From contig CANQFE010000002.1 of the NCBI GenBank assembly GCA_947598285.1, positions 1-61,104 of the forward strand: a stretch of 61,104 bases of DNA, read 5' to 3'. Source of the DNA: an uncultured Bacilli bacterium. Lineage in GTDB: Bacteria > Bacillota_I > Bacilli_A > RF39 > UBA660. The translations under genes were made by a program, and so were the position numbers. Below are positions 112 through 45,335 of the stretch, in pieces (the stretch's first letter is position 1; the number at the start of each line of letters is the position of its first letter). The notes beneath the pieces were generated by a model. It made no database searches. It saw nothing but the letters and a program-made list of their open reading frames with translations, and had not been told where the DNA came from.

Positions 112-2382
112 GTGGATAAAAAAGATTTTCCGGAAGAGGATACTTTTGTCTCGATTGATGAAACAAAAGAACTAAATGATTTAAAAAAATGGAGTGAAGA
201 ACAAGAGGGTGATATTGAAACCCTTTATCAAGAAGATTTTGATGAAAATATGGAAGATTCTGAATTAGTTTTTAAAACTAAAATTAATACTGAAGAAGAA
301 ATGAAAAAAAATTTAGAGCAAAATGGGAAAAAATCTTGGATTTCTAAATTAAAGGATTGGTGGAAGAGTCTTGATAAAAAAAAGAAAATTATCATTATTT
401 CTTCTGTTGTTTTCGGAATCCTTTTAATCATTAGTCTTGTTGTTTTATTCTTTATACTTTTCAAACCGGCTGAAGAAATGATAAAAGAACCTGATGTTAT
501 TTTGGAAATGGATAATTATCGTTATGAAAATGGAAGCCTTATTTTTTTAGAAGATGATTTGGAACTAGGCTCTTATGAATGCCAAAATAAAGATGAAAAT
601 TTATGTGGGGTTGCCCTTCTTACGACTGATGATAAAATGGATACTGTAAAAAGGGTTGATGAAAAAGGAGAGCTTCTTTCTTTTCATTCTAAAATTTATT
701 TTCAAAAATATGTTTTTTTGAAAGATAGTAAAAAAGAAAGTCCAGAAGTTATCCTTTATGATATTGAAAATCAAAAGGTAATTGAAACAGCAGTAGAAGT
801 TTTACAAACTCCGGAATATGATGGATATTTTATTTTAAAAAATAATCAAGGGAAATATGAACTTCTTTCTTTATTGGAAGATGGAGTAAAAACTCTTATT
901 TCTTATGATTCTTCTTATGATGAAATTCATTTGATACCGGGAGAAAGTACTTTATCGATGGTAGCTGTGGCTCAAAACAACCATTATTATCTTGCTAATT
1001 TAGAAAATAAAATTTTAACAAAAGCCTTAAATGATCCAATTGTTGGAGCGAATAAAGAGCATTTAAAAACGAAAAGTGCTACTGGAAAGTATCATATTTA
1101 TGATTACCAAGCCAAAGAAATTAATGCTGGCTTTGAGATGGATTATGTTTATCTTTTAGATCAATACTTTATTTCTGTGTTATCACAATTCTTATATGTT
1201 AGGGATTATGATGGAGCATTAATGTCAGTAGAAAATATTTCACTTCATAATTCTCATTATAATGAAGTTGATACCATCAAAGATAATAAAGTGATAAAAA
1301 AGGAATTAGCATTAGATTATCAAGTGAATGATCATATTTTGAATTTAAATGTTCATCAAGGTGAAGATACAAAGAACTATTCGATTGATTTATATGAAGG
1401 AGCTCTTTCAAAAACACTTGCTTTTATGGATTATTTTAATGGTACATTATATTTTTATACCGATGAAACCAAAACAAATCCAATCGGATATTATCATTGT
1501 ACAAATCGTAATGAAGTGGGAAAAGACACCAAAACGTTAAGTACTTGTAAACCAGCTATGGATAGTGTTTTCCGACAGATTGAAGGAAATATAAAAGAAC
1601 AAGATGAGCAAAATGAAGGTATTATTCCTTTATTTGATAAAGAATTTGTTTTTATCCAAGATGGAGATACAATCGTGTTAGTCGATTTAACTAGTGAGAA
1701 AAAGGAAATTGCCCGTTATGAAAGTGTTGATACAACAACTTATACAGGTCGAACAGAACTCTTTTTATCACCAAGCGATAACCTTAATTTTATTGCTAAA
1801 TCAAAAACATCTGGAAAATTTGGGGTTGCTCAAATAACATCTTCAGGAATTAAACCAGTTATTTCATTTAACAAACAAGATATTAAATTATTAGGAGATT
1901 ATTACGTTGTAAAAGAAAATGATAAATACGCTTTATATAATAAAACTGGCGAAAAAGTTAGTGATGATCGAGTTGCTAAAATTGTTGATTATGAAGGAAA
2001 TTATTTGAAAACTTTAGATGGAACTAATTATTTTGTTTATCCTTTTAAGGGTGAAATTGTTACTGAAAAAGGATTTGATTATATTGAACTTTATGATAAA
2101 TATTATGCTGCGGTGTTCCAGGGTCGAGTTCATCTTTATTCTTATGCTGATAAAGAAGCGCAAAACGAGCTTTTAGTTACAGAAGAAAAAGAAAATGGTG
2201 TTGCTCTTTATGTTACTAATTATTATGATACAATGGGTAAAGTCTTAGCTTTTCAAATGCGTTTTGAAGGCAACATGGTGTATGTTAAAGTGGGTAGCTT
2301 AGATGGAAATTATTCAAAAGAAATAGGATATCCTCTTTCTGGTAGTTCTAGTTCTAGTAGAGATGAGGGTAGTGATGACTAG
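112..2382 (+). CDS. Membrane-anchored protein: acidic N-terminal region, one TM helix (KKKKIIIISSVVFGILLIISLVVLFFILF), large external region with repeated modules
   Basis: Long ORF with coding-like composition. Contains two copies of a Cys-bearing module (YECQNKDENLCGVA and YYHCTNRNEV...LSTCKPA) that recurs in the next ORF. The C-terminal part resembles WG-type repeats (GKFGVAQI, DKYALYNKTGEKV). No family confidently recognised. Confidence 0.6.
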   Translation: MDKKDFPEEDTFVSIDETKELNDLKKWSEEQEGDIETLYQEDFDENMEDSELVFKTKINTEEEMKKNLEQNGKKSWISKLKDWWKSLDKKKKIIIISSVVFGILLIISLVVLFFILFKPAEEMIKEPDVILEMDNYRYENGSLIFLEDDLELGSYECQNKDENLCGVALLTTDDKMDTVKRVDEKGELLSFHSKIYFQKYVFLKDSKKESPEVILYDIENQKVIETAVEVLQTPEYDGYFILKNNQGKYELLSLLEDGVKTLISYDSSYDEIHLIPGESTLSMVAVAQNNHYYLANLENKILTKALNDPIVGANKEHLKTKSATGKYHIYDYQAKEINAGFEMDYVYLLDQYFISVLSQFLYVRDYDGALMSVENISLHNSHYNEVDTIKDNKVIKKELALDYQVNDHILNLNVHQGEDTKNYSIDLYEGALSKTLAFMDYFNGTLYFYTDETKTNPIGYYHCTNRNEVGKDTKTLSTCKPAMDSVFRQIEGNIKEQDEQNEGIIPLFDKEFVFIQDGDTIVLVDLTSEKKEIARYESVDTTTYTGRTELFLSPSDNLNFIAKSKTSGKFGVAQITSSGIKPVISFNKQDIKLLGDYYVVKENDKYALYNKTGEKVSDDRVAKIVDYEGNYLKTLDGTNYFVYPFKGEIVTEKGFDYIELYDKYYAAVFQGRVHLYSYADKEAQNELLVTEEKENGVALYVTNYYDTMGKVLAFQMRFEGNMVYVKVGSLDGNYSKEIGYPLSGSSSSSRDEGSDD

Positions 2383-3337
2383 TCCTAAATTACAAAAAGC
2401 ATCTTTTTATACAATTCTTATTTTGCTTTTGCTTTTTTTACCGATTACAGGGTATAGTCTTTATTTAAAAAGTTTAAATAAAAAGCCTGCTACTTCTAAA
2501 GATAATGTGAATAAAGAAATGTATTTTGATGGTGCTTTATGGTTTTATAATAGTCAAGGTGAAATTTTAGGAACTTATCCTTGTCAAAATACTTATTGTA
2601 GTTACGCTGTTTCTTATGAGGAAGATTTTCATTATCCGCTTCTTACTCATCAAAGTGAAGAAGAAAGCTATTTACCTATTATTAATCAGCAATATGTGTT
2701 TATTTCTGATCATGAAACAAAAGATGATCACTCCGCTTTTTTATATGATATTCAAAAAGAAATTGCTTATAAAGAAATTACTTATGCTTCGATTCATCAA
2801 TATCAAATAGGAATTGAAGATAATCTTTTTATTGTAGAAGATCAAAATCATCATTTTGGTGTTTTACAGATTGATTCTTTTGCAAGTCCAATTCTTGAAA
2901 TTAAATATGATTATGTTGGTATGTTAGATCAGGTAAGTCGTAATAATAAAATCTTAGGAGATTATTTTGTGGTTTTAGAAGATGGTGAATGGAAAATTTT
3001 AGATCGAAATGAAGCAGAGCTTACTTCCTCTATCACAGAACCAATTGTAACTTTTAATGGAGAATATATTATTACTAATCAAGATGGTGTTTATCATGTG
3101 AAAGACTATCAAGGAAATAATATGATAGAAGAAGATTTTACTTATCTTTCTTTTGTTGATAAATATTTACAATGTCAAACTGATACTGAGCTTTATTTAT
3201 ATGATTTTGTAACGAAAAGTGCCATTAGTGAAGTTTATGAAATTAAAAAAAGTGATGATATTTCAGTAGAAGTAAATGGTGAAGAGATTCAAATTTTAAT
3301 TAATAATCGTCTTCAAGAAAGTATATCTTTGACTTGA
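2375..3337 (+). CDS. Membrane-anchored paralog of the external module of the preceding ORF
   Basis: N-terminal TM (FYTILILLLLFLPITGYSLYL). Motifs YPCQNTYCSYAV, YVFISDHE and FLYDIQKE parallel ORF 112-2382. ATG 2375 follows GAGGG and overlaps the upstream stop; the ORF track start 2363 is also possible. Confidence 0.6.
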   Translation: MTSPKLQKASFYTILILLLLFLPITGYSLYLKSLNKKPATSKDNVNKEMYFDGALWFYNSQGEILGTYPCQNTYCSYAVSYEEDFHYPLLTHQSEEESYLPIINQQYVFISDHETKDDHSAFLYDIQKEIAYKEITYASIHQYQIGIEDNLFIVEDQNHHFGVLQIDSFASPILEIKYDYVGMLDQVSRNNKILGDYFVVLEDGEWKILDRNEAELTSSITEPIVTFNGEYIITNQDGVYHVKDYQGNNMIEEDFTYLSFVDKYLQCQTDTELYLYDFVTKSAISEVYEIKKSDDISVEVNGEEIQILINNRLQESISLT

Positions 3338-7684: not shown

Positions 7685-9913
7685 ATGAAAGAAGAACTTA
7701 AAGAAATTAAAAAGAAATATGGCGAAGAAATGGCTCACTTTTGTCGAGATCAGTTTGCAACACTTTTAGAAAAAGAAGGACTATTATCTTCGTTACTGTT
7801 TGAACATTTTGATGTAAGTCATGAATTATATAAAGATTTAAAGAATAACAATCTTTTATTTGGTTTTGTTCAGTATATTTATAGTTTTGCAGAAGAAAAG
7901 AAAAATTTTAAAAATGTTGATAAAACTCCTCAAGAACTTTTAAATTCTGTGGGTTATGAGTTATATGAATGTAAAACAGAGGGTGATATTCAAAAATTTA
8001 AAACATATTATGCCAAAGGAGAAGAACTATGTACTTTTCGTGGTGGAAGATTAAATATTTGTTATGTTTTCTTTGCTGTGAAAAAAAATGTGAATCAAAT
8101 TAAAAGAGAAAATTTTTCTCATCCTCAAAGACAAGACGAATATGGAACAAGTGTCATAAGTATTCAATTTAGTAAAAATACAAATCAATTATCTATAAAA
8201 AATAGATATAATCACACAGTAGATAATCCAGACAGTACATTTGGGAATAACTTAGACAATATTGTCGATGGTCTTACAGATGCTTTTCGAAAAATTTATG
8301 GACTTAAACAAAAAGAAATTCAAAGATTTGAAATTCCAGGATATGTTATGATAAATGGAAAATATTACAAATATAATTATGAAATTAATAATAATTACTA
8401 TTGTACGAATAATGTTTTTATTAAAAATGATCAAGTCATATCGTATCCCAAAGAAAGATATATTTTATTTGATTATTTCTTATTAGATTTAAGAGAAAAA
8501 AAGATCTGCTGTTTAGATAAAATTATAAATGATAGTTTTATTAATAGTATAGGAAAGATAAAAAATGTAAAAATAGAAAAAGAAAATGAATTTAAAAAAA
8601 TTATCATAAGAAATGAACATGAAAGTATTATAGAGATTGTTTTAAATCATGAAAATCAAATGATTAAATATTATAATAATGATGTAAAAGAAATTGGCAA
8701 TGATTTTTGTTATTATAATGAGACTATAGAAGAACTTTCTTTGCCTAATGTAAAAGTTATTTTAAATTATTTTCTGGGACATAATTTGGCTTTAAAAAAA
8801 CTTTTATTACCTAATGTATTAGAGATTAAAGATTATTTTCTTTGTCTGAATCAAATTTTATCAGATTTTGAAGCTTTTAAGTTAAAAACTATTGGAAATT
8901 GTTTTTGTGATGAAAATAACTCATTTAAAGTGCTAAATTTACCAAGTGTACAAACTATTGGAGATGATTTTTTACACTACAATCTATCTCTAGAAAAAAT
9001 TAGTTTACCTAGTGTTACGATGATAAGAAATGATTTTTGTTTTTGCAATCAAACATTAAAAAATTTTGAGGCACCCTGTTTAAAATATATTGGAAAAAAT
9101 TTTTGTCATAACAACCATTTTATGGAAAATATTTCTTTACCGAATGTTAAAATAATAGAAGAATGTTTTTGTTATCAAAATCAAGATCTTCGAAAAATAC
9201 ATTTGCCTAGTGTAGAAGTAATTGAATATGGTTTCTGTTTTGATAATGGATGTATAGAAGATCTTTTTTTGCCAAATATCCAAAATATAGGTTCTGACTT
9301 TTGTTTTCACAATCAAACATTAAAAAAAATTAGTTTGCCAAATGTTGTGCATATTGATAAAAATTTTTGCTATAAAAATGAAATATTGGAAAGTTTTGAA
9401 GCACCTAATTTGAAAAGTGTTGGAGATAATTTTTTGTGTTGTAATCAAAATTTAAAAATACTTAGTTTACCTAGTGTTATTAGAATCGGATGGAATTTTT
9501 GCCATAATAATGAAGATCTTTTTGAACTTTTGTTACCTAAAGTAGAGACTATTGGTGATTATTTCTGTAATTGGAATAATTCATTGACAGAACTTATTTT
9601 ACCCAAAGTGAAAACTATTGGAATTTCTTTTTGCTTTGAAAATAGGTCTCTTATACGATTTGAAGCTCCTAATTTGGAAACCATACATTGTGCTTTTTTA
9701 AAAAATAATCCTCGTTTGAAAATTTTAATAATGCCCAAGACTGGAAATGTAGAAACCAACCTAAATTTGCTATATGAAAGAATACCTGTAGATGTGTTAG
9801 TTTTAAAAGAAGAAGTGATGGCTAAAGATTATCCATTAATTTTGGAATATCAAAAAAGAAAATTAGAAGAAGAAATGAAAAAAAGAAATCAAGAACAAAA
9901 ACTAAAAAAATAA
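7685..9913 (+). CDS. Leucine-rich-repeat protein (BspA/TpLRR-like, Cys-rich repeats) with unknown ~330-aa N-terminal domain; no signal peptide
   Basis: About 16 tandem ~23-aa units of the form L-x-L-P-x-V-x-x-I-G-x-x-F-C-x-x-N-x-x-L. The N-terminus MKEELKEIKKKYGEEMAHF is hydrophilic. Confidence 0.8.
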   Translation: MKEELKEIKKKYGEEMAHFCRDQFATLLEKEGLLSSLLFEHFDVSHELYKDLKNNNLLFGFVQYIYSFAEEKKNFKNVDKTPQELLNSVGYELYECKTEGDIQKFKTYYAKGEELCTFRGGRLNICYVFFAVKKNVNQIKRENFSHPQRQDEYGTSVISIQFSKNTNQLSIKNRYNHTVDNPDSTFGNNLDNIVDGLTDAFRKIYGLKQKEIQRFEIPGYVMINGKYYKYNYEINNNYYCTNNVFIKNDQVISYPKERYILFDYFLLDLREKKICCLDKIINDSFINSIGKIKNVKIEKENEFKKIIIRNEHESIIEIVLNHENQMIKYYNNDVKEIGNDFCYYNETIEELSLPNVKVILNYFLGHNLALKKLLLPNVLEIKDYFLCLNQILSDFEAFKLKTIGNCFCDENNSFKVLNLPSVQTIGDDFLHYNLSLEKISLPSVTMIRNDFCFCNQTLKNFEAPCLKYIGKNFCHNNHFMENISLPNVKIIEECFCYQNQDLRKIHLPSVEVIEYGFCFDNGCIEDLFLPNIQNIGSDFCFHNQTLKKISLPNVVHIDKNFCYKNEILESFEAPNLKSVGDNFLCCNQNLKILSLPSVIRIGWNFCHNNEDLFELLLPKVETIGDYFCNWNNSLTELILPKVKTIGISFCFENRSLIRFEAPNLETIHCAFLKNNPRLKILIMPKTGNVETNLNLLYERIPVDVLVLKEEVMAKDYPLILEYQKRKLEEEMKKRNQEQKLKK
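8687..9785 (+). repeat. Tandem in-frame LRR-coding repeats (~69 nt unit, diverged)
   Basis: Periodic LPNV/LPSV...FC..N motifs in the translation of 7685-9913. Confidence 0.7.
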
Positions 9914-10031: not shown

Positions 10032-11102
10032 ATGAAAAATGAAAAAGTTTATTTTAGAAAAGATGGGCGTTACTATGCTCAGTATAAGAAAGGAGTGAAA
10101 GAAAATGGAAAAATATTTTATGGTTATATTTATGGTAAAACAAAAGAGGAAGTCTTAAATAAAAAAGAAAAGATGATAAATTCAAATTCAATTATTGATA
10201 AATCTTTATTTAGTGGAGATATTTTTAATTGGCTCAAAAGTATAAAAATATCTTGTAAAATATCTACTTATTCCAATTATGAATATACTTGTTATTCTCA
10301 TTTAATCCCTAACTTTGGTTTTTATAAACGAAGTCAAATCAATAGAAATATGATTGATGATTTTACACAGAAATTATTAAATAATGGTTTAGAATCAAAA
10401 ACAGTAAAAGATATTCTAATAGTTCTAAATCAAATTTTAAAATATGTGGGAATACATATAAATATTACAATGCCAAAAGTAAAGAAGAAAAAAATACAAA
10501 TTTTTTCAAAAGAAGAACAATTAAAATTTGAAAAATATCTTTCTCAAAATTTAAATGAAGATAGTTTAGGAATGTATTTAAGTTTATATACAGGACTTAG
10601 AATAGGTGAAATATGTGCTTTAAAATGGAAAAATATTGATTTAAAAGAAAATGTAATTCATGTTGAAAAAACTTTAATACGGGTTAAAAATTATGATAAA
10701 TTTATACCAAAAAAAACAGTGGTTATATTAGATGATCCAAAATCTTCGGCTTCAATTAGAGATATACCAATTCCTAGATTCTGTGTTTCCTTATTAAAAA
10801 AATATAAAAATGATGATGAAGTATTTCTTTTAACGGGAACAAAGGAATTTATTGAACCTCGAAGCTATGCAAATCATTTTAAAAATGTAATGAAAATTCT
10901 TCATATGGAAAAATATCATTTTCATATTTTAAGGCATACATTTGCAACAAGATGTGTTGAAAATAAAAGCAATATAAAAGCATTAAGTGAAATACTTGGT
11001 CATTCCAGTGTAAAAATCACATTAGAAAGATATGTACATCCTAGTTTTGATGAAAAAGTAAATATGATAAATCATTTAAGTCCATTAGTTACAATAGCAT
11101 AA
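10032..11102 (+). CDS. Tyrosine recombinase / phage- or Tn916-type integrase
   Basis: N-terminal arm-type DNA-binding motif (YFRKDGRYYAQYKKG...YGYIYGKTKEEV). Catalytic region LRIGEICALKW, HILRHTFATRC and LGHSSVKITLERYVH. Confidence 0.85.
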   Translation: MKNEKVYFRKDGRYYAQYKKGVKENGKIFYGYIYGKTKEEVLNKKEKMINSNSIIDKSLFSGDIFNWLKSIKISCKISTYSNYEYTCYSHLIPNFGFYKRSQINRNMIDDFTQKLLNNGLESKTVKDILIVLNQILKYVGIHINITMPKVKKKKIQIFSKEEQLKFEKYLSQNLNEDSLGMYLSLYTGLRIGEICALKWKNIDLKENVIHVEKTLIRVKNYDKFIPKKTVVILDDPKSSASIRDIPIPRFCVSLLKKYKNDDEVFLLTGTKEFIEPRSYANHFKNVMKILHMEKYHFHILRHTFATRCVENKSNIKALSEILGHSSVKITLERYVHPSFDEKVNMINHLSPLVTIA

Positions 11103-11133: not shown

Positions 11134-11288
11134 ACTAAATTTATAGAGAGTATAAGTTCCTAAAGTTACTATCTACTTTAAATTCTTTATTTACTTTATA
11201 AAATTCTCATTGTGTTATATGTATTTCCTTTTTTCTATTCTTATTAAAAAGAAAAATATTATTAAAATTGATGCAGTGTGATATTTCT

Positions 11289-11355
11289 GTCAATTGACGT
11301 CTGGGGGGGGGGTAATTGATAAAATCATCATAAATAGGTATGGTGATTTTTTCAA
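11289..11355 (+). promoter_or_regulatory. Conserved promoter cassette, copy 1: palindrome/-35, poly-G spacer, extended -10, inverted repeat, SD
   Basis: GTCAATTGAC 11289-11298. TTGACG 11294-11299. G10 11303-11312. TGaTAAAAT with TAAAAT at 11320-11325. Inverted repeat AAAATCATCA (11321-11330) / TGGTGATTTT (11341-11350). GGTGAT Shine-Dalgarno. Near-identical cassettes occur at 27358 and 29683. Confidence 0.6.
11303..11312 (+). repeat. Homopolymeric G10 tract
   Basis: Ten consecutive G read directly from the sequence. Confidence 0.95.
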
Positions 11356-12723
11356 ATGAAATTACAAAGATTTAAAGAAAAAAATAAGAAGAAACAAAGA
11401 ATTATAGTATTTACCATAGCTTGTGTGTTATTAATCACAGGAGTTTTCTTGTATAAAACATTTGCAAGTTTTCAAGTGATCGAAAATGAAGATTTCATTA
11501 ATGGAGATATAAACGACCCAGGAGATATTTACTTTGCTTTTTATAAAGATAATGTGATCCAAAAAGATATGCCAAAAAAGAAAGATGGATATGTCTTAGA
11601 TGAAAGTAAAAGTTATTGTGGAGTCACAGGTGGAAATGACTCTGATATCAAAGTACATGTTACGGAAAATGATATGATTTTTGTAGAAGGAGTCACGACA
11701 TCAAGAACAAAATGTAATTTGTATTTTATAAAAGGAGCCTATATCTTAGGTAAAGGAGTTCCCTTAGCTTCAGAAGGAGAAGATGGACTTTATGAAGTTC
11801 CTCATGGAACAGAAGTTTCAGGAACAATCAATGATACAGGATTTCAACAAATTGAATATAGATATGCCGGAAAGAGTCCAAATAACTATATTAGATTTAA
11901 TGATGAAGATTGGCGGATCATCGGTTTAGTAAATGTATTGACAACCAATGGAACAGTAGAACAAAGAGTCAAGATTGTAAAAGATGATTCAATTGGAGAG
12001 TATAGTTGGGATAGTTCATTACCAAATGTGGATTTTGGATATGGAGTGAATGAATGGACTGAAGCGGACTTAAAAACGGAATTAAATGAGTATTATTTAA
12101 ATAGTACTTCTGGAACTTGTTATATAAATAACAATAATACTTCTCAGCCTTGTGACTTTACTCAAACAGGCATCAAAAATAATTATAAAGGTTTTATAGA
12201 AGAAGTTATTTGGAATACCGGAACAAATGGAGACACCAATTTTTCGTATCTAAACTCAACCAATCAAATTTATGAACTAGAAAGAAGTTCAAATTTAAGT
12301 GACCTATGTAAATCAGAAGAAAATGATTATAGGTGTAATGATGACGTACAGAGAAAGGCAAGTTGGCAAGGAAAAATAGGTTTAATGTATCCAAGCGATT
12401 TTGGTTATGCAACAATTGGTGTTGCTAATGGAGTTTCATGCAAAACTATGAATTTTGATAATTGGGAAAATAACAGTGATTGTTTTGATAACGATTGGTT
12501 ATTTATTAAAAATGGAGAACAATGGTTATTGACACCCAATTCTAATCCAACATATGGATATACTGTATATTATCAGACTTCGACGGGACGTTTAGGGTAT
12601 CATCCGGCTTATTTTCCTAAAAATGTTAAGCCCACCTTTTATTTAAAACCAAATGTAAAAATTATTAGTGAAGGAGATGGTAGTGAAGATAATCCATTTC
12701 AACTAGTTCAAATTTTAAAATGA
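11356..12723 (+). CDS. Secreted/surface protein paralog A (N-module A + C-module X)
   Basis: N-terminal basic region plus hydrophobic segment (IIVFTIACVLLITGVFLYKTFASFQV). N-terminal ~127 aa closely match ORF 29749. The C-terminal ~310 aa match ORF 27424 (EYRYAGKSPNNYIRFNDEDWRIIGLVNVL, YPSDFGYA, PTFYLKPNVKI). Confidence 0.85.
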   Translation: MKLQRFKEKNKKKQRIIVFTIACVLLITGVFLYKTFASFQVIENEDFINGDINDPGDIYFAFYKDNVIQKDMPKKKDGYVLDESKSYCGVTGGNDSDIKVHVTENDMIFVEGVTTSRTKCNLYFIKGAYILGKGVPLASEGEDGLYEVPHGTEVSGTINDTGFQQIEYRYAGKSPNNYIRFNDEDWRIIGLVNVLTTNGTVEQRVKIVKDDSIGEYSWDSSLPNVDFGYGVNEWTEADLKTELNEYYLNSTSGTCYINNNNTSQPCDFTQTGIKNNYKGFIEEVIWNTGTNGDTNFSYLNSTNQIYELERSSNLSDLCKSEENDYRCNDDVQRKASWQGKIGLMYPSDFGYATIGVANGVSCKTMNFDNWENNSDCFDNDWLFIKNGEQWLLTPNSNPTYGYTVYYQTSTGRLGYHPAYFPKNVKPTFYLKPNVKIISEGDGSEDNPFQLVQILK

Positions 12724-12874: not shown

Positions 12875-13927
12875 ATGCAAACTGTAAAAAAGTATAGTTG
12901 GTCTGTTTGTTTATTTTTAATTTTACTTTTTGGAACTTATTATTTTGTTTTAAAAGATTATTCGATTCAAACTTTTTTTGATTCTGTTTCTCATTGTCAT
13001 TTTTTCTTTTTATTTTTGGCTTTTCTTGCATTATTTGGTTATTGCTTTTTTGCAGCAGTTTATTTTAAAAGAATTTTAAAATATTTTGGAAAAAAGATTA
13101 ATTGGTATCAAGCTTTTGGGTATCATTTTACCGAAGTTTATTTTTCAGCGATTACGCCAAGTAGTATTGGAGGACAGCCTGTACAAATGGTAGAGATGAA
13201 TAAAGATCATATTCCTTATCGAATCAGTACAGTTTTAATTTTATTAAATACTCTTATTTATAAAATTGCTTTACTTACTGTCGCGGTGATTGGTTTTGTT
13301 TTTTGCTCTCATTTATTATTTTCGCAAAATGCTTTGTTTGTTTGGCTTTTTCTTTTAGGTTTTATTACAACGGTTTTCTTGATTCTTTTTTTTCTTGCTT
13401 TAGTTTATTCAAAAAAATTAGTTCGAAAGACTGCTGATCTTTTATTTCGATTAGGAAGAAAGTTAAAACTTAAAAAAATAGATGATTGGCAAGCGAAGTT
13501 TGAAGAAGCTTTTCAAGGATATCAGGAATGTGCCAAGTTGACCAAACAAAATCCTCGGATTTTACTAGAAGCATATCTTATTTTGCTTTGCCAAAGAGTT
13601 TGTTTACTTTCTATTTGTTATTTTATTTATTTATCTTTTGGACTTCGTGAGTTTAATATTATTCAAATTTTAGCTTTTCAATCTTGTATTACTTTGGCAA
13701 GTGATTTTATGCCTTTTCCAGGTGGTTTAGTTGTGAGCGAAGGATTATTATTACAAATTAATCAATTTATTTATGGATCTTCTTTAGCAACATCGGCTAT
13801 GATTTTATTTCGAAGTGTTAGTTTCTATTTTATTGTTATTTTCAGTGGTATTTTCTATCTATTTTTTCATTTTATGAAACGTAAAAAAGCAAATGATTTT
13901 GAAATAGAAGGGAAAGAAGAAGTGTGA
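12875..13927 (+). CDS. UPF0104 / MprF-flippase-like (lysylphosphatidylglycerol synthase TM region family) membrane protein
   Basis: Multi-pass hydrophobic protein with YFSAITPSSIGGQPVQ, typical of this family. AGGTGA RBS before ATG 12875 (ORF track start 12866). Confidence 0.75.
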   Translation: MQTVKKYSWSVCLFLILLFGTYYFVLKDYSIQTFFDSVSHCHFFFLFLAFLALFGYCFFAAVYFKRILKYFGKKINWYQAFGYHFTEVYFSAITPSSIGGQPVQMVEMNKDHIPYRISTVLILLNTLIYKIALLTVAVIGFVFCSHLLFSQNALFVWLFLLGFITTVFLILFFLALVYSKKLVRKTADLLFRLGRKLKLKKIDDWQAKFEEAFQGYQECAKLTKQNPRILLEAYLILLCQRVCLLSICYFIYLSFGLREFNIIQILAFQSCITLASDFMPFPGGLVVSEGLLLQINQFIYGSSLATSAMILFRSVSFYFIVIFSGIFYLFFHFMKRKKANDFEIEGKEEV

Positions 13928-14301
13928 AGAAGGGATTTACATTAATAGAACTTATTATTACCATTGGTTTAATCGCGGCTGTCGGAACTATTGTTGTCGC
14001 GAATATGAGCAGTACTTTAAGTAGGGAGCAAGATACTCAATATCAAATGTTTGTCAAAAAGTTAGAGAATGCCGCTTGTACTTATGTGGAATTAAAAGTA
14101 TTTCAAGAAACTTATGGGGTAAATCAAAAAGAAACTTGTAAAAATTCATCTTGTACAATAAAAGTAAAAGATCTTTTAGATTCTGGTTTAATAGAAGAGA
14201 AAGATTTAAAGGATCCTAAAATTCAAGATTACATTTCTTCTAATACTTCAATTCGAATTAGTTATCCTGGACAAGTGAAAACGTGCACCTATCAAGGATA
14301 A
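13924..14301 (+). CDS. Type IV prepilin / pseudopilin
   Basis: MKKG|FTLIELIITIGLIAAVG is a prepilin cleavage/methylation motif with Glu at +5. The GTG start overlaps the upstream TGA (GTGA). Confidence 0.85.
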   Translation: MKKGFTLIELIITIGLIAAVGTIVVANMSSTLSREQDTQYQMFVKKLENAACTYVELKVFQETYGVNQKETCKNSSCTIKVKDLLDSGLIEEKDLKDPKIQDYISSNTSIRISYPGQVKTCTYQG

Positions 14302-14369
14302 AATTTGCTTGTGTTTTCTTTCGTTACCTGTTATAATGATAAAGATTCAAGTTGGGAGGATTATGTTAT

Positions 14370-14504
14370 ATGAAAGTTTATAAAAAGAACTTACCAGATG
14401 ATGTCAGAAAAATGTTTGCTTTAGAAAAAGGAGTTAAAGTAAAATATTTAAATTCTAAGTATTATGGTAAGAATGCCAAAAAGAAAAAGCAAGAGTCTAA
14501 ATAG
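14370..14504 (+). CDS. Small Lys-rich ORF (44 aa, MKVYKKNLPDDVRKMFALEKGVKVKYLNSKYYGKNAKKKKQESK)
   Basis: GGGAGGA RBS, upstream TGtTATAAT extended -10 and a downstream hairpin plus T7. Not in the ORF track (under 60 aa). Function unknown. Confidence 0.3.
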   Translation: MKVYKKNLPDDVRKMFALEKGVKVKYLNSKYYGKNAKKKKQESK

Positions 14505-14568
14505 ATTCTTTTTTTGATACTTTTTCTTTTCACTTGAAAAGTGATGGACAATATGTTATATTGAATAC

Positions 14569-14691
14569 AGATGAAGGAAACTTCATAAAATAAAAAAAGG
14601 AAGGCATTCGTGCTCACATGCTAATGCCTGCCTAATATTTTAAGGTTTGGCATTTAATCTTTTAAATAAAGATTAAGTGCCATTTTCATTT
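14569..14691 (+). ncRNA. Candidate antisense small RNA (type I antitoxin-like), copy 1
   Basis: Promoter TTGAAA (14534-14539)-17 nt-TATATT (14557-14562) with TG at -15/-14. 5' hairpin ATGAAG-GAAA-CTTCAT (14571-14586). Hairpin AGGCATT/AATGCCT (14602-14629). Terminator hairpin 14649-14681 plus a U-rich tail. The architecture is conserved at 29372-29489. Confidence 0.45.
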
Positions 14692-14790
14692 GTAGATTGC
14701 CCAAATAATGGTCAAAATACAAATCATGATGAAAAAGATAATCAAGGTGATATATTTCATAAGTTGTAGAATAAAAAATCTTTTACTCAT
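14686..14790 (-). CDS. Small hydrophobic peptide, type I toxin-like (34 aa, MSKRFFILQLMKYITLIIFFIMICILTIIWAIYK)
   Basis: GGAG RBS 8 nt upstream of the ATG. Minus-strand promoter TTGATT (14889-14884)-18 nt-TGtTATGAT (-10 at 14865-14860). Minus-strand terminator formed by hairpin 14602-14629 followed by a U-run. Paralog at 29483-29566. Confidence 0.45.
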   Translation of the reverse strand: MSKRFFILQLMKYITLIIFFIMICILTIIWAIYK

Positions 14791-14979
14791 AAAGACCACT
14801 CCTTTCTAAAAAAAGATGAGAAGTGGTAGGCACTAGCCACGAATGACTTCCATAAAATAATCATAACACACTTAAAAGAAATAAATCAATAGTAAAATAA
14901 TAATTACCAACATGTCAATTGATTTTGAGGTTGTTTTAAAATGTTTCTATTTTTTATGTTTCTATTTTTTAAAATTTTA

Positions 14980-15006
14980 TTAGCAATTAGGTATTGACAG
15001 TGCTAA
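14980..15006 (+). promoter_or_regulatory. CIRCE operator 1 (HrcA binding site)
   Basis: TTAGCAATT-N9-CAGTGCTAA versus consensus TTAGCACTC-N9-GAGTGCTAA. Confidence 0.7.
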
Positions 15007-15022
15007 TTCTTCATATTATAAT
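14994..15022 (+). promoter_or_regulatory. SigA-type promoter of the hrcA operon
   Basis: TTGACA (14994-14999)-17 nt-TATAAT (15017-15022). The -35 is embedded in CIRCE 1. Confidence 0.7.
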
Positions 15023-15026
15023 ACTG

Positions 15027-15053
15027 GTAGCATTTGAAATAAAAAAGTGCTAA
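15027..15053 (+). promoter_or_regulatory. CIRCE operator 2 (degenerate left arm)
   Basis: GTAGCATTT-N9-AAGTGCTAA, located between the -10 and the hrcA start. Confidence 0.6.
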
Positions 15054-15066
15054 AAGGAAGTGAATT

Positions 15067-23649: not shown

Positions 23650-25410
23650 ATGCCGAGATTAGCCCAAGAGACAATAGATGAGATCAGAAATTCTACGGAT
23701 ATTGTTGAAATTGTAAAAGAATATGTTCCTCTTACTCAACGGGGAAAAAATTTTTTGGGAATTTGTCCCTTTCATCAAGATCATTCTCCCAGTATGAGTG
23801 TTTCCCGGGAAAAACAAATTTATAAGTGTTTTTCTTGTGGAGCAGCCGGCAATGTCTTTCATTTTGTGAGTGAAATTGAAAGTATTTCTTATATCGATGC
23901 GGTTCGTAAATTAGGAGAACGGCTCGGAATGAAATTAAATACTCAGTCTTTTCATGTCCAAGAAAAATATGAAAAAGAGTATGAAATCATGGCCATCACG
24001 GCTGCGTTTTATCAAAATAATTTAAATACAAAAATGGGCTTGAAAGCGAAAGAATATTTAAAAAACAGGGGATTAGATGAAGAGTTTCAAAAAGAATTTG
24101 GAATTGGCCTTTCTTTTCATCAAAATGAGTTGTCACACTTTCTGGAAAAAAAGAATGTTTCTTGGCAAGATATGATTGATTTAGGACTTGTTCATGAAAA
24201 AGATTTATCTTATCATGATTTGTTTATGAACCGAATTTTGTTTCCAATTCATAATGCTGAGGGAAAAGTTGTTGGTTTTACGGGCCGCGTTTATGAAAAG
24301 GATGCTACGCCAAAGTATTTAAATAGTAAAGAAACGAAAATTTTCCGAAAAGGAACGATTTTATTTAATTATCATCGAGCGAAAGAAGCAATTCGAAGAG
24401 AAAAGAAAGTTATTGTAGTCGAAGGAAATATGGATGCTATTCGAATGTATGTGAGTGGATTTTTCAATACTGTAGCATTAATGGGAACAAGTCTTACGAA
24501 AGAACAAATTCTTTTGCTTCAGAAATTTAGAACACCCATATTATTAATGTTAGACAATGATTCAGCCGGAGCTCTTGCCACGATGAATGTTGGAGATCTT
24601 TTAGAAAAATCTGGATTAACTGTCGAAGTTGTACGATTAAGTGGAAAAAAAGATCCTGATGAATATATTTTAACTTATGGTGTTGAGGCCATGCGAGACA
24701 ATATTATGCATCCCATCTCTTTTCTTGATTTTAAATTACAATTTTTAAAAGAAGATAAAGATTTAAAAGATACTTCTTTATTAGCTCAATATGTCAAAAA
24801 TGTTTTAGTTAGTTTACAAGGGAAAGATGCAATTACAGTTGATATTACCCTTAATAAGTTAGTAGAGGAATATCATTTAAATTATGAAGTTTTAAAGCAA
24901 GAATTGGAAGTGACCGAACAAAAACCGAAAATATTACCAACTGAGGTATCTCCTCCTAAAAAAAAGCAAACTCGTTATGAATTAAGTGTGAATGCAGTGC
25001 TTTATTATATGATGAATGATTCGAAATATATTCAAATGTATCAAAACGAGTTAGGATATTTTAAAGAAGCTCATTATCGAGAGATTGCGAGCGAAATTCT
25101 TTATTATTATGAACTTCATCATACAATGGTTTTCGCTGATTTTCTAAGTTATGTGGAAACTTCTCCTTTAAAAGAGGAAATCATGCGAGTGATTCGAAGT
25201 ATAAATGAAGAAAAATTAACCGAAACTAATATGGAAGAATATTTAAAAATGATTAAGGAGATTACGTGGAAAGAGAAAATTAACTCCTTAAAAGAGGAAA
25301 TGAAAAAAACAACTGATATTCATCAAAAAGAATTAATTGCTATGGATATTACTGATTTAGGGAAAAAGATACAGGAAATTAGAAAAGAAAGAAGTGTTAA
25401 AAATGACTAA
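23650..25410 (+). CDS. dnaG: DNA primase
   Basis: Zinc finger [13 protein letters not shown]...CFSCGAAG. Toprim (VEGNMD, DNDSAG). AGGAGG RBS before ATG 23650. Confidence 0.95.
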
Positions 25411-26692
25411 ATTTGAAATGAAAAAAAATGAATTAATTGAAAAAGGACTTTTAGAAGGATATTTATTAATTAGTGAAGTTGTAGAGATTGCAAAAGAGTG
25501 TCGGGCGACAAAAGAACAAATTACTTTGTTTGAACAAGAAATTACGGAGCAAGGAATTGAATTATTAGAAACAGCTCCTATAGAAAAGAAAAATGTGATT
25601 GAAAAAGTAAGAGAAATTAAATCTTTTGAAGAAAGAAAAGAAGAGTTAATTGCGAAAGGAAAAAAGGCAGGCAAAATTACTTATGAAGAACTTGCGACAT
25701 CTTTAAAAGGACTTGATGTTGATAATGATTCATTAGATGATCTTTATAATTCTTTAATGGAAAATGGCATTGAAGTAGTCGGTGAAGATGATGAAGAAAA
25801 TGGGGGAGCTGGAAAAGATCAACCAATTATTTTAGATGATGCTGAAATTACCAAGGATGTCAATATTAATGATCCAGTAAGGATGTATTTAAAAGAAATT
25901 GGTCGTATTTCTTTATTAAGTGCGGAAGAAGAAATGGAATTATCTATTAAAGTTGCGAATGGCGATGAAGTTGCTAAAAATAAGCTTGCCGAATCTAATT
26001 TACGATTAGTCGTTTCGATTGCAAAAAGATATGTTGGTAGAGGTCTTTTATTCTTAGATTTAATTCAAGAGGGAAATATTGGTCTTATGAAAGCTGTCGA
26101 TAAGTTTGATTATGATAAAGGATATAAATTTTCCACTTATGCGACTTGGTGGATCCGTCAAGCTATCACGAGGGCTTTAGCTGATCAAGCAAGAACAATA
26201 CGTGTTCCAGTTCATATGGTAGAAACGATTAATAAAATGGCACGAATTCAAAGACAACTTACTTTGGAACTAAATCGTGAACCATCTGAAGAAGAGATTG
26301 CAAGAAAAATGGGAATATCTGTAGATAAGGTTCGTGATGTCATTAAAATTAGTCAAGATCCCGTTTCTTTGGAAACACCTATTGGCGAAGAAGATGATTC
26401 TCATTTAGGAGATTTTGTTAAAGATATTAATATGATGACTCCAGAAGAATATGCGACTAATGAAATCTTAAAAGAAGAAATTAAATCAGTTTTAGAAACT
26501 TTGCAAGAAAGGGAACAAGAAGTGTTGGAACTTCGTTTTGGATTAATTGATGGAACTAGTCATACGCTTGAAGAAGTTGGAAAACGTTTTAATGTTACAC
26601 GTGAACGAATTAGACAAATTGAAGCCAAAGCATTACGTAAGTTAAGACATCCATCTCGTGCAAAAAAATTAAAGGATTTTTTGACTGATTGA
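25394..26692 (+). CDS. sigA: Primary sigma factor SigA/RpoD
   Basis: Regions 2-4 ([32 protein letters not shown]). The start may be ATG 25403. Overlaps the dnaG end. Confidence 0.95.
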
Positions 26693-27345: not shown

Positions 27346-27357
27346 AATATTTTTCGT

Positions 27358-27423
27358 GTCAATTGACCTCTGGGGGGGGGGTAATTGATAAAATCATCAT
27401 AAGTAGGTATGGTGATTTTTTAA
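27358..27423 (+). promoter_or_regulatory. Conserved promoter cassette, copy 2
   Basis: GTCAATTGAC 27358-27367. TTGACC 27363-27368. G10 27372-27381. TGaTAAAAT with TAAAAT at 27389-27394. Same inverted repeat and SD as copy 1. Confidence 0.6.
27372..27381 (+). repeat. Homopolymeric G10 tract
   Basis: Ten consecutive G read directly. Confidence 0.95.
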
Positions 27424-29322
27424 ATGAAACTAAAAAATAAAAAAATAATTATAGTATTCAGTATCTTGGTATTAATATGTACAATGGCAGGTGTAAGCTA
27501 TGCTGTCTGGCAAATGACATTAACCCAAGAAGATGATAATTTAATTACATCAAGTTGTTTTCAAGTGACCATGACAGAGAAAAATCCAATTAGTTTACAA
27601 AATGCAATTCCAATCACAGAGCAAGATGGAGAATCTTTAGTTCCTTATACCTTTACCATTCATAATGAATGTGGAGAAAATGCCTTGTATGAAATTCATT
27701 ATGAAATATTAAATAATACAACATTTACTGAAAAAGAAGAACAAGAATTTATTAAAATTAAGTTCCAAGAAGAAAAACCAAAGTTCTTAAATAGTTTAGA
27801 CAAAACAGACAAAACATTAAACAATGCAAGTAGAGCATATGTGATTGAAAGAGGATATATCAAAGCAAATGAAACAAAAAACTATGAATTAAAAGTATGG
27901 TTAGATGAAAACGTGACAGTAGATGATGGTGTTATGGGAAAAATATTTGCAAGTGAAGTAACAATCACAGCCAGATATGACAGAGAAATCCTAACAAGTC
28001 CAGAAGTAGAGTTAGTATTAAGTAGGTGTAGTGATGATATCATAGCAAGTGTTAAGACAAGTGGAAATGTAATAGATACTTATGAATACACAATAGATAG
28101 TGAAGATGCAATAACTGAAAATGAGGCAACACATACGTTTACAGATCAAGGAAGAGGAACAAGGCATCATGTTAAAGTAAAAGTAACAGATGTTTATGGA
28201 AATATAACAGAAAAAGAAGGAGATATAGAAATACCAGAATATCCAACATTACTAGGAAAGCAAATAGGAAAAGATATAGAAGTAGTTACAGAAGGAGAAG
28301 GCTTATATGAAGTAACACATTGTGAAGGAACAATAGAGAATGATGAATTAACAGATGTTCAAAAAGAAGGATTCTTATTAGAAGAATACCGATATGCAGG
28401 AAAGAATCCAAATAATTATATTACATTTAATGATGAAGAATGGCGAATTATCGGTTTAGTAAATGTATTAGTATCTCAAGCTGATGGAAGCGAAAAGGTA
28501 GAACAAAGAGTAAAAATTGTAAAAAATGAAAGCATCGGACAATATAGTTGGGATACTTCACCATCAGATGTCAATAGTGGTTGGGGAGTAAATGAATGGA
28601 GCCAAGCAGATTTAATGAAGTTACTAAACCCTGGATATGAGAACAATCAAGATAAAGATAGTAATGGCTCCGATATTAAAGTCAATAATAGTCTATATTG
28701 GACTGGTGAAAGCGGTAATTGTTATAGTTCTTCTAGAAATCAAAAAAAATCATGTGATTTTGCAAATGGTTTAAATGATGTAGATTCCTATATTGCAAAT
28801 GATATTATATGGAATACAGGAGCAAATCAAAATAATGAAAAATATACTCAATTAAAAGCAAGCGATTTTTATTTAGAAGAGAGATCTAATGGAATTGGAA
28901 AAAATTGCCAACCTAATGATACTTATGTTAATGATTCTGGTACATCATATCATCTTTGTACGGATAGTGTAGAAAGGAAGACAACATGGGAGGGGAAAGT
29001 CGCTTTACTCTATCCGAGTGACTATGGTTATGCATCTGGTGATAGATCATGTTTGGATAGTTATCTTTATAATTGGAGTAGCAACGACTGCTATCAGCAA
29101 AATTGGCTTTTTCAGGAAAAAGATATTTGGACATTAACGACTGGTACTTCAATATATTCTGCTGCAAGTTATATCTTTTTTATTCGATATTTAGGTCATG
29201 TTCCTATGCATTCTGCAGAAACTGGATATTATGTATTCCCAACATTATATTTAAAACCCGAGATAAAAATTGTCAATGGCGAAGGGAAAGCTGATGGTTC
29301 ATATGAATTATCAGAAAATTAA
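27424..29322 (+). CDS. Secreted/surface protein paralog B (distinct N-module + C-module X)
   Basis: Signal-anchor MKLKNKKIIIVFSILVLICTMAGVSYAVWQ. Central beta-rich region. The C-terminal ~340 aa match ORF 11356 (EYRYAGKNPNNYITFNDEEWRIIGLVNVL, YPSDYGYA, PTLYLKPEIKI). Confidence 0.85.
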   Translation: MKLKNKKIIIVFSILVLICTMAGVSYAVWQMTLTQEDDNLITSSCFQVTMTEKNPISLQNAIPITEQDGESLVPYTFTIHNECGENALYEIHYEILNNTTFTEKEEQEFIKIKFQEEKPKFLNSLDKTDKTLNNASRAYVIERGYIKANETKNYELKVWLDENVTVDDGVMGKIFASEVTITARYDREILTSPEVELVLSRCSDDIIASVKTSGNVIDTYEYTIDSEDAITENEATHTFTDQGRGTRHHVKVKVTDVYGNITEKEGDIEIPEYPTLLGKQIGKDIEVVTEGEGLYEVTHCEGTIENDELTDVQKEGFLLEEYRYAGKNPNNYITFNDEEWRIIGLVNVLVSQADGSEKVEQRVKIVKNESIGQYSWDTSPSDVNSGWGVNEWSQADLMKLLNPGYENNQDKDSNGSDIKVNNSLYWTGESGNCYSSSRNQKKSCDFANGLNDVDSYIANDIIWNTGANQNNEKYTQLKASDFYLEERSNGIGKNCQPNDTYVNDSGTSYHLCTDSVERKTTWEGKVALLYPSDYGYASGDRSCLDSYLYNWSSNDCYQQNWLFQEKDIWTLTTGTSIYSAASYIFFIRYLGHVPMHSAETGYYVFPTLYLKPEIKIVNGEGKADGSYELSEN

Positions 29323-29371
29323 AGTTATGATTTTCCTTGAAAAACAAGGTAAAAAGTGATAAAGTGTATAT

Positions 29372-29489
29372 AGATGAAGGAAACTTCATAAAATAAAAAA
29401 GGAACATTCAATGTCGCATGTTGAGTGTTGCCAATATAAGTTGGTATCACCTAAATCATTATTGCTGAGTTAGGTGATTCTTTTATTTT
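29372..29489 (+). ncRNA. Candidate antisense small RNA (type I antitoxin-like), copy 2
   Basis: Promoter TTGAAA (29337-29342)-17 nt-TGaTAAAGT (-10 at 29360-29365). 5' hairpin identical to copy 1 (29374-29389). Hairpin AACATTCAA/TTGAGTGTT (29403-29429). Terminator ATCACCTAA/TTAGGTGAT (29446-29478) plus TCTTTTATTTT. Confidence 0.45.
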
Positions 29490-29566
29490 AGGATTACAAA
29501 TAGTAATATTATAAGTAAAAGGATAATGATAATCAAAAAGAAAATTAAAAAATCCTTCTTGTTCAT
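29483..29566 (-). CDS. Small hydrophobic peptide, type I toxin-like (27 aa, MNKKDFLIFFLIIIILLLIILLFVILK)
   Basis: GGGAGGTG RBS 7 nt upstream of the ATG. Minus-strand TGtTATAAT (-10 at 29635-29630). Minus-strand terminator formed by hairpin 29403-29429 plus a U-run. Confidence 0.45.
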   Translation of the reverse strand: MNKKDFLIFFLIIIILLLIILLFVILK

Positions 29567-29682
29567 ATTATCACCTCCCTTCAATTAAGAAGCTCGGCAA
29601 TCACCCAACTATTGAATATTCCTAAAATAATTATAACACACTTAAAAAAACAAATCAGCTATAAAATAATAATTGTCCACAT

Positions 29683-29748
29683 GTCAATTGACCTCTGGGG
29701 GGGGGTATTTGATAGAATCATCATAAATAGGTATGGTGATTTTTTCAA
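29683..29748 (+). promoter_or_regulatory. Conserved promoter cassette, copy 3
   Basis: GTCAATTGAC 29683-29692. TTGACC 29688-29693. G9 29697-29705. TGaTAGAAT with TAGAAT at 29713-29718. Same inverted repeat and SD. Confidence 0.6.
29697..29705 (+). repeat. Homopolymeric G9 tract
   Basis: Nine consecutive G read directly. Confidence 0.95.
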
Positions 29749-44840: not shown

Positions 44841-45335
44841 ATGGCAAATGCTATAATAAAAAATCAAAAGAAAGGTTTTTATATGAATCTAGAATGGAAA
44901 TATAATTTAAAAGTTTTTCTTGCGCCTAATTATTGGAGTTTAGAAAAATTACAATTATCTAAAGAATATCATGAATGTTTTTTGACTGAAAATAATGTTT
45001 TACTTCCATCACCAATGTCTATGGAAGAGGAACAAAATTGTGTGATGCGTATCCAAAAAGGAGACCAAATAGCTTTTAGTAAGTTAATCGAACATAACCT
45101 TTGGTTGGTCAATTTTTTTGCCAAACAATTTGAAGACTCTGGCTATGAAATGAATGATTTAATCAGTATTGGTGCCGTAGGTTTGATAGAAGGAATTAGA
45201 ACTTATAAATTAAATAAAAATATTCAACTAATCGAGCATAATTCAAGATGTATTCTGAATGCTATTTCCCATTTTTTAAGAAATAGTTCATCACAAAAAT
45301 TAAAAATCATATTTCAAAAAGATATCAGTTACTAA
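44841..45335 (+). CDS. Sigma-70 family fragment: sporulation-type (SigE/SigK-like) regions 1.2-2 only, no regions 3-4
   Basis: LPSPMSMEEEQNCVMRIQKGDQIAFSKLIEHNLWLVNFFAKQFEDSGYEMNDLISIGAVGLIEGI parallels SigE/SigK region 2. Region 2.4 is degenerate and the ORF ends about 40 aa later. The likely start is ATG 44883. Confidence 0.6.
   Translation: MANAIIKNQKKGFYMNLEWKYNLKVFLAPNYWSLEKLQLSKEYHECFLTENNVLLPSPMSMEEEQNCVMRIQKGDQIAFSKLIEHNLWLVNFFAKQFEDSGYEMNDLISIGAVGLIEGIRTYKLNKNIQLIEHNSRCILNAISHFLRNSSSQKLKIIFQKDISY

Follow-up and report, generated by a model that had tools for sequence, protein, structure and literature searches.

In this study, we examined three genes, here called A, B and C, in a 61,104-nucleotide stretch of contig CANQFE010000002.1 from an uncultured Bacilli bacterium (RF39; UBA660), a stretch that we refer to in its entirety as the window. 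This chromosomal DNA has a low GC content (~29%), nearly all of its genes lie on the + strand, and the family loci are surrounded by the housekeeping genes valS, hrcA-grpE-dnaK-dnaJ, dnaG-rpoD, obg, lepA, mutS, nusB and proS. A (11356-12723, 455 amino acids), B (27424-29322, 632 amino acids) and C (29749-31611, 620 amino acids) are all encoded on the + strand. An initial annotation of this DNA had described them as a domain-shuffled family; absent from it was the poly-G promoter cassette that precedes each of the three genes, which is the more interesting content of the locus.

All-against-all BLASTP aligned residues 1-127 of A colinearly with residues 1-128 of C (59% identity, E 5e-45) and residues 131-452 of A with residues 281-631 of B (39% identity, E 7e-67). 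Beyond these two regions, N1 (A/C) and X (A/B), the comparison returned no further link among the three proteins. When family profiles were aligned with hhalign, the two N1 profiles proved homologous (probability 100%, E 2e-67), and X had no detectable relation to Y, the C-terminal module of C (probability 0.07%), which rules the two out as remote homologues and leaves the general fold class as their only common ground. Both methods uphold the composition that had been proposed, namely A = N1+X, B = N2+X and C = N1+Y, and the hhalign result agrees with the proposal that A and C are unrelated past residue ~127. The family is modular with discrete boundaries: pairwise alignment and a maximum chi-square segmentation both gave sharp edges rather than uniform divergence.

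In A, N1 (11356-11736, codons 1-127) consists of a putative signal/anchor helix and a small beta domain (residues ~57-130) with invariant Cys88 and Cys120, its second half (codons 66-127) being specific to the X type, and X (11737-12723) is predicted to be an enlarged C-type-lectin-like domain resembling DUF6273. In B, N2 (27424-28263, ~280 codons) comprises a signal/anchor helix, with the first ~20 codons still alignable to A and C, and then a beta-rich region that is unrelated to N1 and shows a weak PKD_4 hint; X follows at 28264-29322. In C, N1 (29749-30132, codons 1-128) is made up of a block shared with A (codons 1-65) and a Y-associated subtype (codons 66-128), and Y (30133-31611) is predicted to have a C-type-lectin/FGE-like fold, as in the variable proteins of diversity-generating retroelements (DGRs).

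The ~127-codon N1 module had initially been taken as shared by A and C at near nucleotide identity, and as the unit that is homogenised. A recount over 11410-11508 versus 29803-29901 gave exactly the 92 identical positions in 99 that had been reported, and the colinear homology holds, but the high identity ends halfway through the module: A and C are 85% identical in nucleotides over codons 1-65 and 54% over codons 66-130 (for codons 66-127, 54% in nucleotides and 38% in amino acids). Maximum chi-square segmentation of an alignment that included 150 nt upstream found the best contrast for the segment from -66 to +195 relative to the ATG (87% identity inside, 50% outside; chi2 88.5, reached by 0 of 200 permutations), which in A corresponds to ~11290 to ~11551 on the + strand, that is, the cassette and codons 1-65. 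The block thus starts in non-coding DNA, upstream of what had been annotated. No relation among A, B and C remains upstream of -66. In B, whose share in this 5' sequence the initial annotation had not noted, the block extends from -67 to roughly codon 20, is shortened by a deletion of 7 codons, and gives way to divergent sequence.

The coding part of the block encodes a charged leader, a hydrophobic helix, a low-confidence linker and a DPGDIYFAFY strand. In the AlphaFold model of A (predicted local distance difference test score, pLDDT, 89), the helix spans residues 11-38, the linker residues 38-52 has a pLDDT <50, and the folded N1 beta domain begins at ~57. The near-identical part is therefore promoter, 5' untranslated region (UTR), signal/anchor and linker, without a folded module, and this unit, rather than N1 with its type-specific codons 66-127, is what appears homogenised. 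Near-identity is likewise too strong a term for a block at 87%, in which the longest perfect A/C run, counted by eye in the alignment, is ~39 nt and lies in the UTR.

The cassette itself, ~70 bp including the 5'UTR, is a near-consensus promoter of the form TTGACS-N19/20-TG-n-TA(A/G)AAT and reads, in A, B and C, TGTCAATTGAC(G/C)TCT-G(10,10,9)-TA(A/T)TTGATA(A/G)AATCATCATAA(A/G)TAGGTATGGTGATTTTTT(C)AAATG. An uninterrupted run of guanines, G10 in A, G10 in B and G9 in C, sits inside the spacer between the -35 and the TG-extended -10, the spacers being 20, 20 and 19 bp long. In A (cassette 11288-11355), the -35 TTGACG (11294-11299) is followed by the spacer (11300-11319) with its G10 (11303-11312) and by the -10 TAAAAT (11320-11325). 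The corresponding elements are TTGACC (27363-27368), G10 (27372-27381) and TAAAAT (27389-27394) in B (27357-27423), and TTGACC (29688-29693), G9 (29697-29705) and TAGAAT (29713-29718) in C (29681-29748), all on the + strand. The window holds only three G/C runs of at least 8, where 0.16 would be expected by chance, and they are precisely these three promoter tracts.

Each leader contains, between -10 and ATG, a 9-bp hairpin followed by a T-run, together with a Shine-Dalgarno sequence (SD), GGTGAT, 8-9 nt ahead of the ATG. In A, the hairpin ATCATCATA/AATAGG/TATGGTGAT occupies 11324-11347, the T-run 11347-11352 and the SD 11342-11347, and B and C are arranged alike; the hairpin's 5' arm takes in the last bases of the -10 together with the expected start site, and its 3' arm contains the SD. 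Hairpins of four species have folding energies of -10 to -12.6 kcal/mol (z -3.4 to -4.2), and over 15 cassettes 95.8% of cells are paired, compared with 35-62% in slid controls, with one compensatory change (C-G to A-U). These comparisons lend moderate support to the conserved hairpin being real. It may act as an insulator or terminator for read-through, by sequestering the SD, or as a site at the DNA level. An Rfam scan of the whole window returned no family, and thus no known riboswitch or leader. A consensus scanner limited to spacers of 16-18 bp missed the poly-G promoter for that reason and proposed TTGATA-17-TATGGT instead, which we rejected, as it leaves a leader of ~5 nt without an SD and its "-10" is the conserved SD/hairpin arm. 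A palindrome over the -35, GTCAATTGAC, was likewise discarded as an operator, not being kept in the cassettes of other species, where only TTGAC persists.

The same arrangement recurs outside the window. Related loci totalling 401 kb contain 18 G/C runs of at least 8, every one of them at this promoter position, and a poly-G tract between recognisable -35 and -10 hexamers was found in 20 related loci; about one quarter of the related loci have TTGAC-N1-3-G(7-10)-N7-9-TAnAAT upstream and the remainder do not. Some cassettes have perfect TTGACA and TGnTATAAT hexamers (L079, L080). The spacer is 20 bp long in 18 of 23 poly-G cassettes (19 bp in three, 18 bp in one and 17 bp in one), as opposed to 17 bp in 28 and 18 bp in four of the 37 paralogs without poly-G that have a strong promoter match. 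Within one metagenome-assembled genome (MAG), Lapin-007 bin30, the same cassette stands ahead of N1+X, N1+Y and other types, and three metagenome loci show it upstream of an N2-like gene (L136), an N1 gene (L141) and a gene with a third type of N-terminus (L166). A search of metagenome contigs with the exact cassette pattern gave no match, and a looser pattern gave mostly noise, with real cassettes in 3 of 120 loci.

Tract length varies from 7 to 10 among paralogs. At the same locus, it could be compared in L081 and L082, which are independent assemblies of the window's own organism: the tract of A is G10 in the window and in L081, that of B is G10 in the window and in L082, and that of C is G9 in the window and G13 in L082, the latter on a contig of ~4.7x coverage that ends 30 nt further on. 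Short-read contigs start (L006, L007, L009, L036) or end (L082 5200-5253) at or within a few bases of the tract or cassette. The cassette is thus a systematic assembly breakpoint, and tracts longer than ~10 are probably under-represented in assemblies.

Paralogs without poly-G have a different upstream layout. A gene-specific palindrome, present in two or three copies, overlaps their promoter, TTGACA-N17-TATAAT, and a divergent gene for a small XRE-type (HTH_3) regulator of 67-159 amino acids lies 66-134 nt upstream. This arrangement was found ~60-250 nt upstream of the N1-family gene in L001, L011-L013, L015, L018, L019, L021, L023, L028, L031, L040, L046, L053, L071, L073 and L076. Poly-G loci have no divergent XRE gene, nor is an activator gene linked to them. 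Judged by its layout, the XRE-linked design is probably a second, regulator-based control of the same protein family.

Cassettes resemble each other more within genomes than between them: identity is 88-96% within the window and averages 84% within genomes and 67% between genomes. The cassettes of A and B are 92% identical, with only 3 differences in the ~70-nt stretch from -67 to the ATG (counted by eye), and yet the X modules of the same two genes have reached saturation at synonymous sites (0.60 of codons identical, 0.59 expected from codon usage). Among 54 family members, identity over residues 1-65 is 0.75 for different types from the same genome and 0.69 for the same type from different genomes, whereas residues 66-127 are type-specific, at 0.35 and 0.62, respectively. 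The same division is seen in close X-type homologues of A (P0002, P0004, P0006, P0014), whose first half matches C at 0.85-0.88, as well as or better than it matches A, and whose second half matches A (~0.7-0.9) and not C (0.40). From these patterns we infer that the 5' block has been homogenised among paralogs over evolutionary time, with recombination or gene conversion as the most economical cause. The initial annotation had suggested such exchange to be ongoing among the loci. Concerted evolution of the 5' end agrees with its idea of exchange, but the 87% identity of the block and its modestly raised synonymous identity (0.78 vs 0.63 expected) speak against a recent event and do not bear out "ongoing" conversion.

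Database searches recovered 2378 homologues of A and >7900 of C, nearly all from MAGs of uncultured gut Bacilli; one source name among them is Candidatus Ventrenecus sp. Scanning the GTDB species genomes with the N1 alignment gave 158 loci, and single rabbit-gut MAGs carry at least 20 copies. In a survey of relatives for alternative module combinations, N1 occurred in fusions with X, with Y and with two or more further, unclassified C-terminal types, always with the junction at residue ~127-135, and X occurred abundantly with other N-termini. Full-length N1+X is the commonest architecture and N2+X is rarer; full-length N1+Y orthologues of C reach 77% identity. Gene B was recovered via P0241, which is called with a later start codon, and exact-protein look-ups for B, C and P0122 returned no record. 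As N1+X and N1+Y are found full-length in many MAGs, the fusions are old; to judge by this distribution, the domain mosaic first noted here is real and ancient, and not the product of a recent shuffle. A full-text literature search found no description of this protein family or of such tracts in these organisms.

To relate the modules to known proteins, we relied on structure, as Pfam and NCBIfam scans of A, B and C gave nothing but the PKD_4 hint in B, even at E<=10 or E<=1, and the family alignments of A and C matched nothing in sequence-profile searches of the PDB. Structure prediction yielded a helix and a beta domain for N1 and C-type-lectin-like folds for X and Y. The best PDB match of the A model in Foldseek was 9qa6, the Thomasclavelia ramosa IgA peptidase (E 1e-7), presumably reached by X through that enzyme's N-terminal domain, which has been described as a C-type-lectin domain/DUF6273 (PMC12237041, PMC12402451). 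X also matches gut-phage DUF6273 proteins in BFVD, and DUF6273 is among the domains that DGRs are known to target in receptor-binding proteins of phages (PMC10743442). The Pfam model of DUF6273 (PF19789) gave no hit in A or B, even at E<=10, and a few homologues carry a precomputed PF19789 hit. X is thus a remote relative of DUF6273 by structure, and not a member by sequence model. The Y model (pLDDT 83) matched TaqVP (5vf4, E 6e-8), Mtd (1yu0) and then FGE/EgtB enzymes. On these models, X and Y would both be lectin-fold binding domains.

A charged leader, a hydrophobic helix and a conserved (S/T)(F/Y)A motif at the helix end suggest that A, B and C are exported or surface proteins. This motif we take to resemble signal-peptidase sites of the TasA/camelysin type, and we treat the resemblance as a lead only. 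No canonical lipobox ([LVI][ASTVI][GAS]C followed by a polar mature end) was found in the three proteins: in A and C, the sequence FTIAC continues with ten further hydrophobic residues in helix 11-38, and B has LIC. Cys23 of A (11422-11424) and C (29815-29817), in an FTIxC context within the hydrophobic helix, is invariant across the N1 alignment and lies outside a canonical lipobox context.

Several features of the surrounding DNA were recorded alongside the family. Two genes encode tyrosine recombinases, 10032-11102 (+; Phage_int_SAM_3 and Phage_integrase) and 59127-60032 (-; XerC/D-like), which share 32% identity over 157 amino acids; the former lies directly upstream of A, also in an independent assembly. 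A scan of the window for tRNAs found none, hence there is no tRNA-linked island. Genes of a type IV pilus or pseudopilus lie beside the family (13924-14301, 32011-33636 and 33645-34409 on the + strand, 34428-35747 on the - strand): a prepilin (KGFTLIEL, N_methyl) is encoded two genes after A, and a PilC-like T2SSF protein, an A24 prepilin peptidase and a T2SSE ATPase directly after C. A, B and C themselves have no prepilin motif. Other probable surface proteins are a 742-amino-acid BspA-type leucine-rich-repeat protein upstream of A (7685-9913) and the products of the adjacent open reading frames (ORFs) 112-2382 and 2363-3337, which have in common a region of ~260 amino acids (26% identity) without a meaningful Pfam match. 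The intergenic regions 14302-15066 and 29323-29748 share segments of ~80% identity (14528-14597 with 29331-29400, and 14875-14922 with 29644-29691), and each has a small, very hydrophobic ORF on the - strand, 14686-14799 (...MKYITLIIFFIMICILTIIWAIYK) and 29483-29584 (MNKKDFLIFFLIIIILLLIILLFVILK). From this layout they look like type I toxin-antitoxin-type loci; the Rfam scan matched no known family there. Finally, a 164-amino-acid ORF (44841-45335) without Pfam match at E<=1e-5 is 31% identical over 94 amino acids to residues 173-266 (sigma region 1.2/2) of the RpoD-like factor encoded at 25394-26692.

Considering all of this, we find it fairly probable that A, B and C belong to an exported lectin-like family with phase-variable poly-G promoters, whose 5' cassette evolves in concert. 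The family would join lectin-fold C-terminal modules (X, Y) to a few N-terminal anchor or stalk modules (N1, N2 and others) behind a common front end, the ~70-bp cassette followed by the signal/anchor helix and linker. With G9-10 in the spacer, the hexamers are 19-20 bp apart, compared with 17 bp in the family's ordinary promoters. Runs of nine or more guanines are, as simple sequence repeats, intrinsically prone to slippage. Slipped-strand mispairing would change the length of the run and shift the spacing of -35 and -10, such that a promoter that is weak at 19-20 bp would be turned on by contraction to 17-18 bp. Each paralog could switch or grade its transcription independently of the others, giving a stochastic, combinatorial repertoire of lectin-like surface proteins, and recombination or gene conversion would keep the cassette and the first ~65 codons alike among deeply diverged paralogs.

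Several observations weigh against this explanation. For the tract of A, as for that of B, two independent assemblies agree on G10, and the only difference at the same locus, G9 versus G13 in C, lies 30 nt from the end of the ~4.7x contig. The assembled state is uniform, G10 with a 20-bp spacer, from which 2-3 bases would have to be lost to reach 17-18 bp, and such uniformity could mean that the element is functional and fixed, not hypermutable. The window also contains a gene for a full-length MutS (45377-47914), so mismatch repair is probably present, which bears on the slippage rate of G9-10 tracts. Synonymous-codon identity in the shared coding block (0.78 vs 0.63 expected) does not exceed that in the second half of N1; with so slight an increase, part of the likeness could be due to selection acting on signal peptide and regulatory DNA, with no need for conversion. 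Lastly, the only indications of export and cleavage are the hydrophobic helix and the conserved (S/T)(F/Y)A motif. The uniformity of the G10/20-bp state is the main unexplained point; it may reflect loci that are OFF by default, short-read censoring of longer tracts, mutational equilibrium or a promoter that works at 20 bp.

These points bring up other explanations. In one of them, neither conversion nor switching takes place: common purifying selection acts on promoter, leader and signal, through a regulator, the ribosome-binding context or the export/processing machinery, and the G-run is a fixed part of a 20-bp-spacer promoter, for example one that needs a spacer-distorting activator. Such an element would fit the recurrence of G10 and a 20-bp spacer in 18 of 23 cassettes of several species despite differing flanks (3+10+7, 1+10+9, 2+10+8), the identical lengths of the A and B tracts in independent assemblies and the conservation of the UTR hairpin and SD. 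We nevertheless give it a low probability, because tract lengths of 7, 8, 9, 10 and 13 occur and contigs break at the tract, because a G-run of this length is slippage-prone and the poly-G loci are without a linked activator gene, and because the paralogs of one genome hardly differ at those loop and spacer positions of the cassette where genomes are free to differ from each other. About equally unlikely, in our view, is that the N1 module is actively exchanged by gene conversion or recombination, which would make N1+X, N2+X and N1+Y a recently shuffled mosaic. The block is indeed discrete, of high identity and sharp-edged, and X- and Y-type genes share genome or clade signatures in residues 1-65 and in the non-coding cassette. 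It does not, however, coincide with N1, the type-specific codons 66-127 having diverged to the values given above; its identity is 87% and not ~100%, its synonymous divergence is no lower than in the rest of N1, and N1+X and N1+Y are conserved full-length orthologues in many MAGs, as expected of old fusions.

It would also be conceivable that the poly-G is a sequencing or assembly artefact, such as the G tails of two-colour chemistry, and that the block is merely a conserved signal peptide region. The deviating C tract in L082, near a contig end at low coverage, would suit this idea, but the tracts lie within long contigs, flanked on either side by conserved unique sequence, occupy the same promoter position in MAGs and metagenomes of different studies and hosts, and are absent elsewhere in the same contigs, making an artefact extremely improbable.

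Phase-variable poly-G promoters in an exported lectin-like family therefore remain our preferred explanation. A wider and distinctly more tentative proposal, which we would at present sooner doubt than accept, is that of an undescribed form of combinatorial surface variation in small-genome gut Bacilli. Dozens of exported C-type-lectin-fold proteins per genome, built on folds that phages and DGRs likewise employ for variable ligand binding, would each be gated either by a poly-G cassette, OFF by default at 20 bp and with the hairpin and T-run as an insulator against read-through, or by a divergent XRE repressor with gene-specific operators, and the 5' cassette including the export signal would spread and be homogenised among unrelated paralogs by gene conversion. 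Should the tracts switch, phase variation in the style of pathogens (porA or vlp type) would operate in abundant uncultured commensal gut Bacilli. It would act on a huge, unannotated lectin-like family whose members could plausibly determine interactions with glycans, mucus, the host or phages, and would explain the breaks of MAG contigs at these promoters. TTGAC-N1-3-G(7-13)-N7-9-TAnAAT would then be a practical metagenome marker for such genes, and the poly-G and XRE-controlled paralogs offer a natural comparison of stochastic and regulated control in one family.

By analogy with known systems, we consider it reasonably probable that these loci represent promoter-spacer homopolymer phase variation, a known kind of switch, in an uncharacterised protein family of uncultured gut Bacilli. 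Further cases of repeats in promoter spacers are hifA/B of H. influenzae and fim of Bordetella. Two other types of variable system share features with the family. Like the inversion families vsa of M. pulmonis, vsp of M. bovis and vpma of M. agalactiae, it has a conserved 5' end, and a tyrosine recombinase gene lies just upstream of A. In contrast to these families, each copy has a full promoter, and the copies are direct repeats on the + strand separated by essential genes, so that dnaK, rpoD and other genes would be lost if the copies recombined with each other; no inverted repeats at the three cassettes were found in the window. A recombinase shufflon, suggested by the integrase beside A, was ruled out on these grounds. 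The fold of Y, FGE-like and of the C-type-lectin class as in the DGR variable proteins TaqVP (5vf4) and Mtd of a Bordetella phage (1yu0), prompted us to consider a DGR target, and X resembles the C-type-lectin domains of phage DUF6273 "tentaclin"-type receptor-binding proteins (PMC10743442). This candidate was also ruled out: scanned window ORFs of at least 100 amino acids contain no reverse transcriptase domain, and no repeat in the window matches the 3' end of A, B or C to form a template/variable repeat pair. Unlike in DGR systems, diversity here would come from many paralogs and promoter switching, and not from mutagenic retrohoming.

The promoter itself finds a counterpart in porA of Neisseria meningitidis, which, according to van der Ende 1995 as cited in PMC3899988, has a poly-G tract between -35 and -10. 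In both cases the G-run lies in the spacer, and tract length therefore sets the spacing of the hexamers and, in porA, the level of transcription. They differ in that porA is a single gene of a Gram-negative pathogen with spacers around the optimal 16-18 bp, while the assembled spacers here are 19-20 bp, 2-3 bp over the family's 17, and one cassette is reused by many paralogs. For the family as a whole, the comparison is with the vlp genes of Mycoplasma hyorhinis, where, following Citti & Wise 1995 as summarised in PMC10502178, each variable lipoprotein gene is described as having its own promoter with a poly-A tract and as switching independently and combinatorially. Switching of A, B and C is a prediction from DNA sequence; the tract is poly-G rather than poly-A, and instead of a lipobox there is a hydrophobic helix that runs on past the Cys. 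The variable parts are folded C-type-lectin-like domains and not tandem repeats, and the genes do not form a cluster but lie scattered between housekeeping genes. Common to both are a multigene family of (here probable) surface proteins, a low-GC host of the Firmicute lineage, a homopolymer tract in the promoter of each gene, and a 5' region and signal sequence conserved among otherwise diverged paralogs, a likeness that our comparisons bear out for the promoter, the 5'UTR and the signal.

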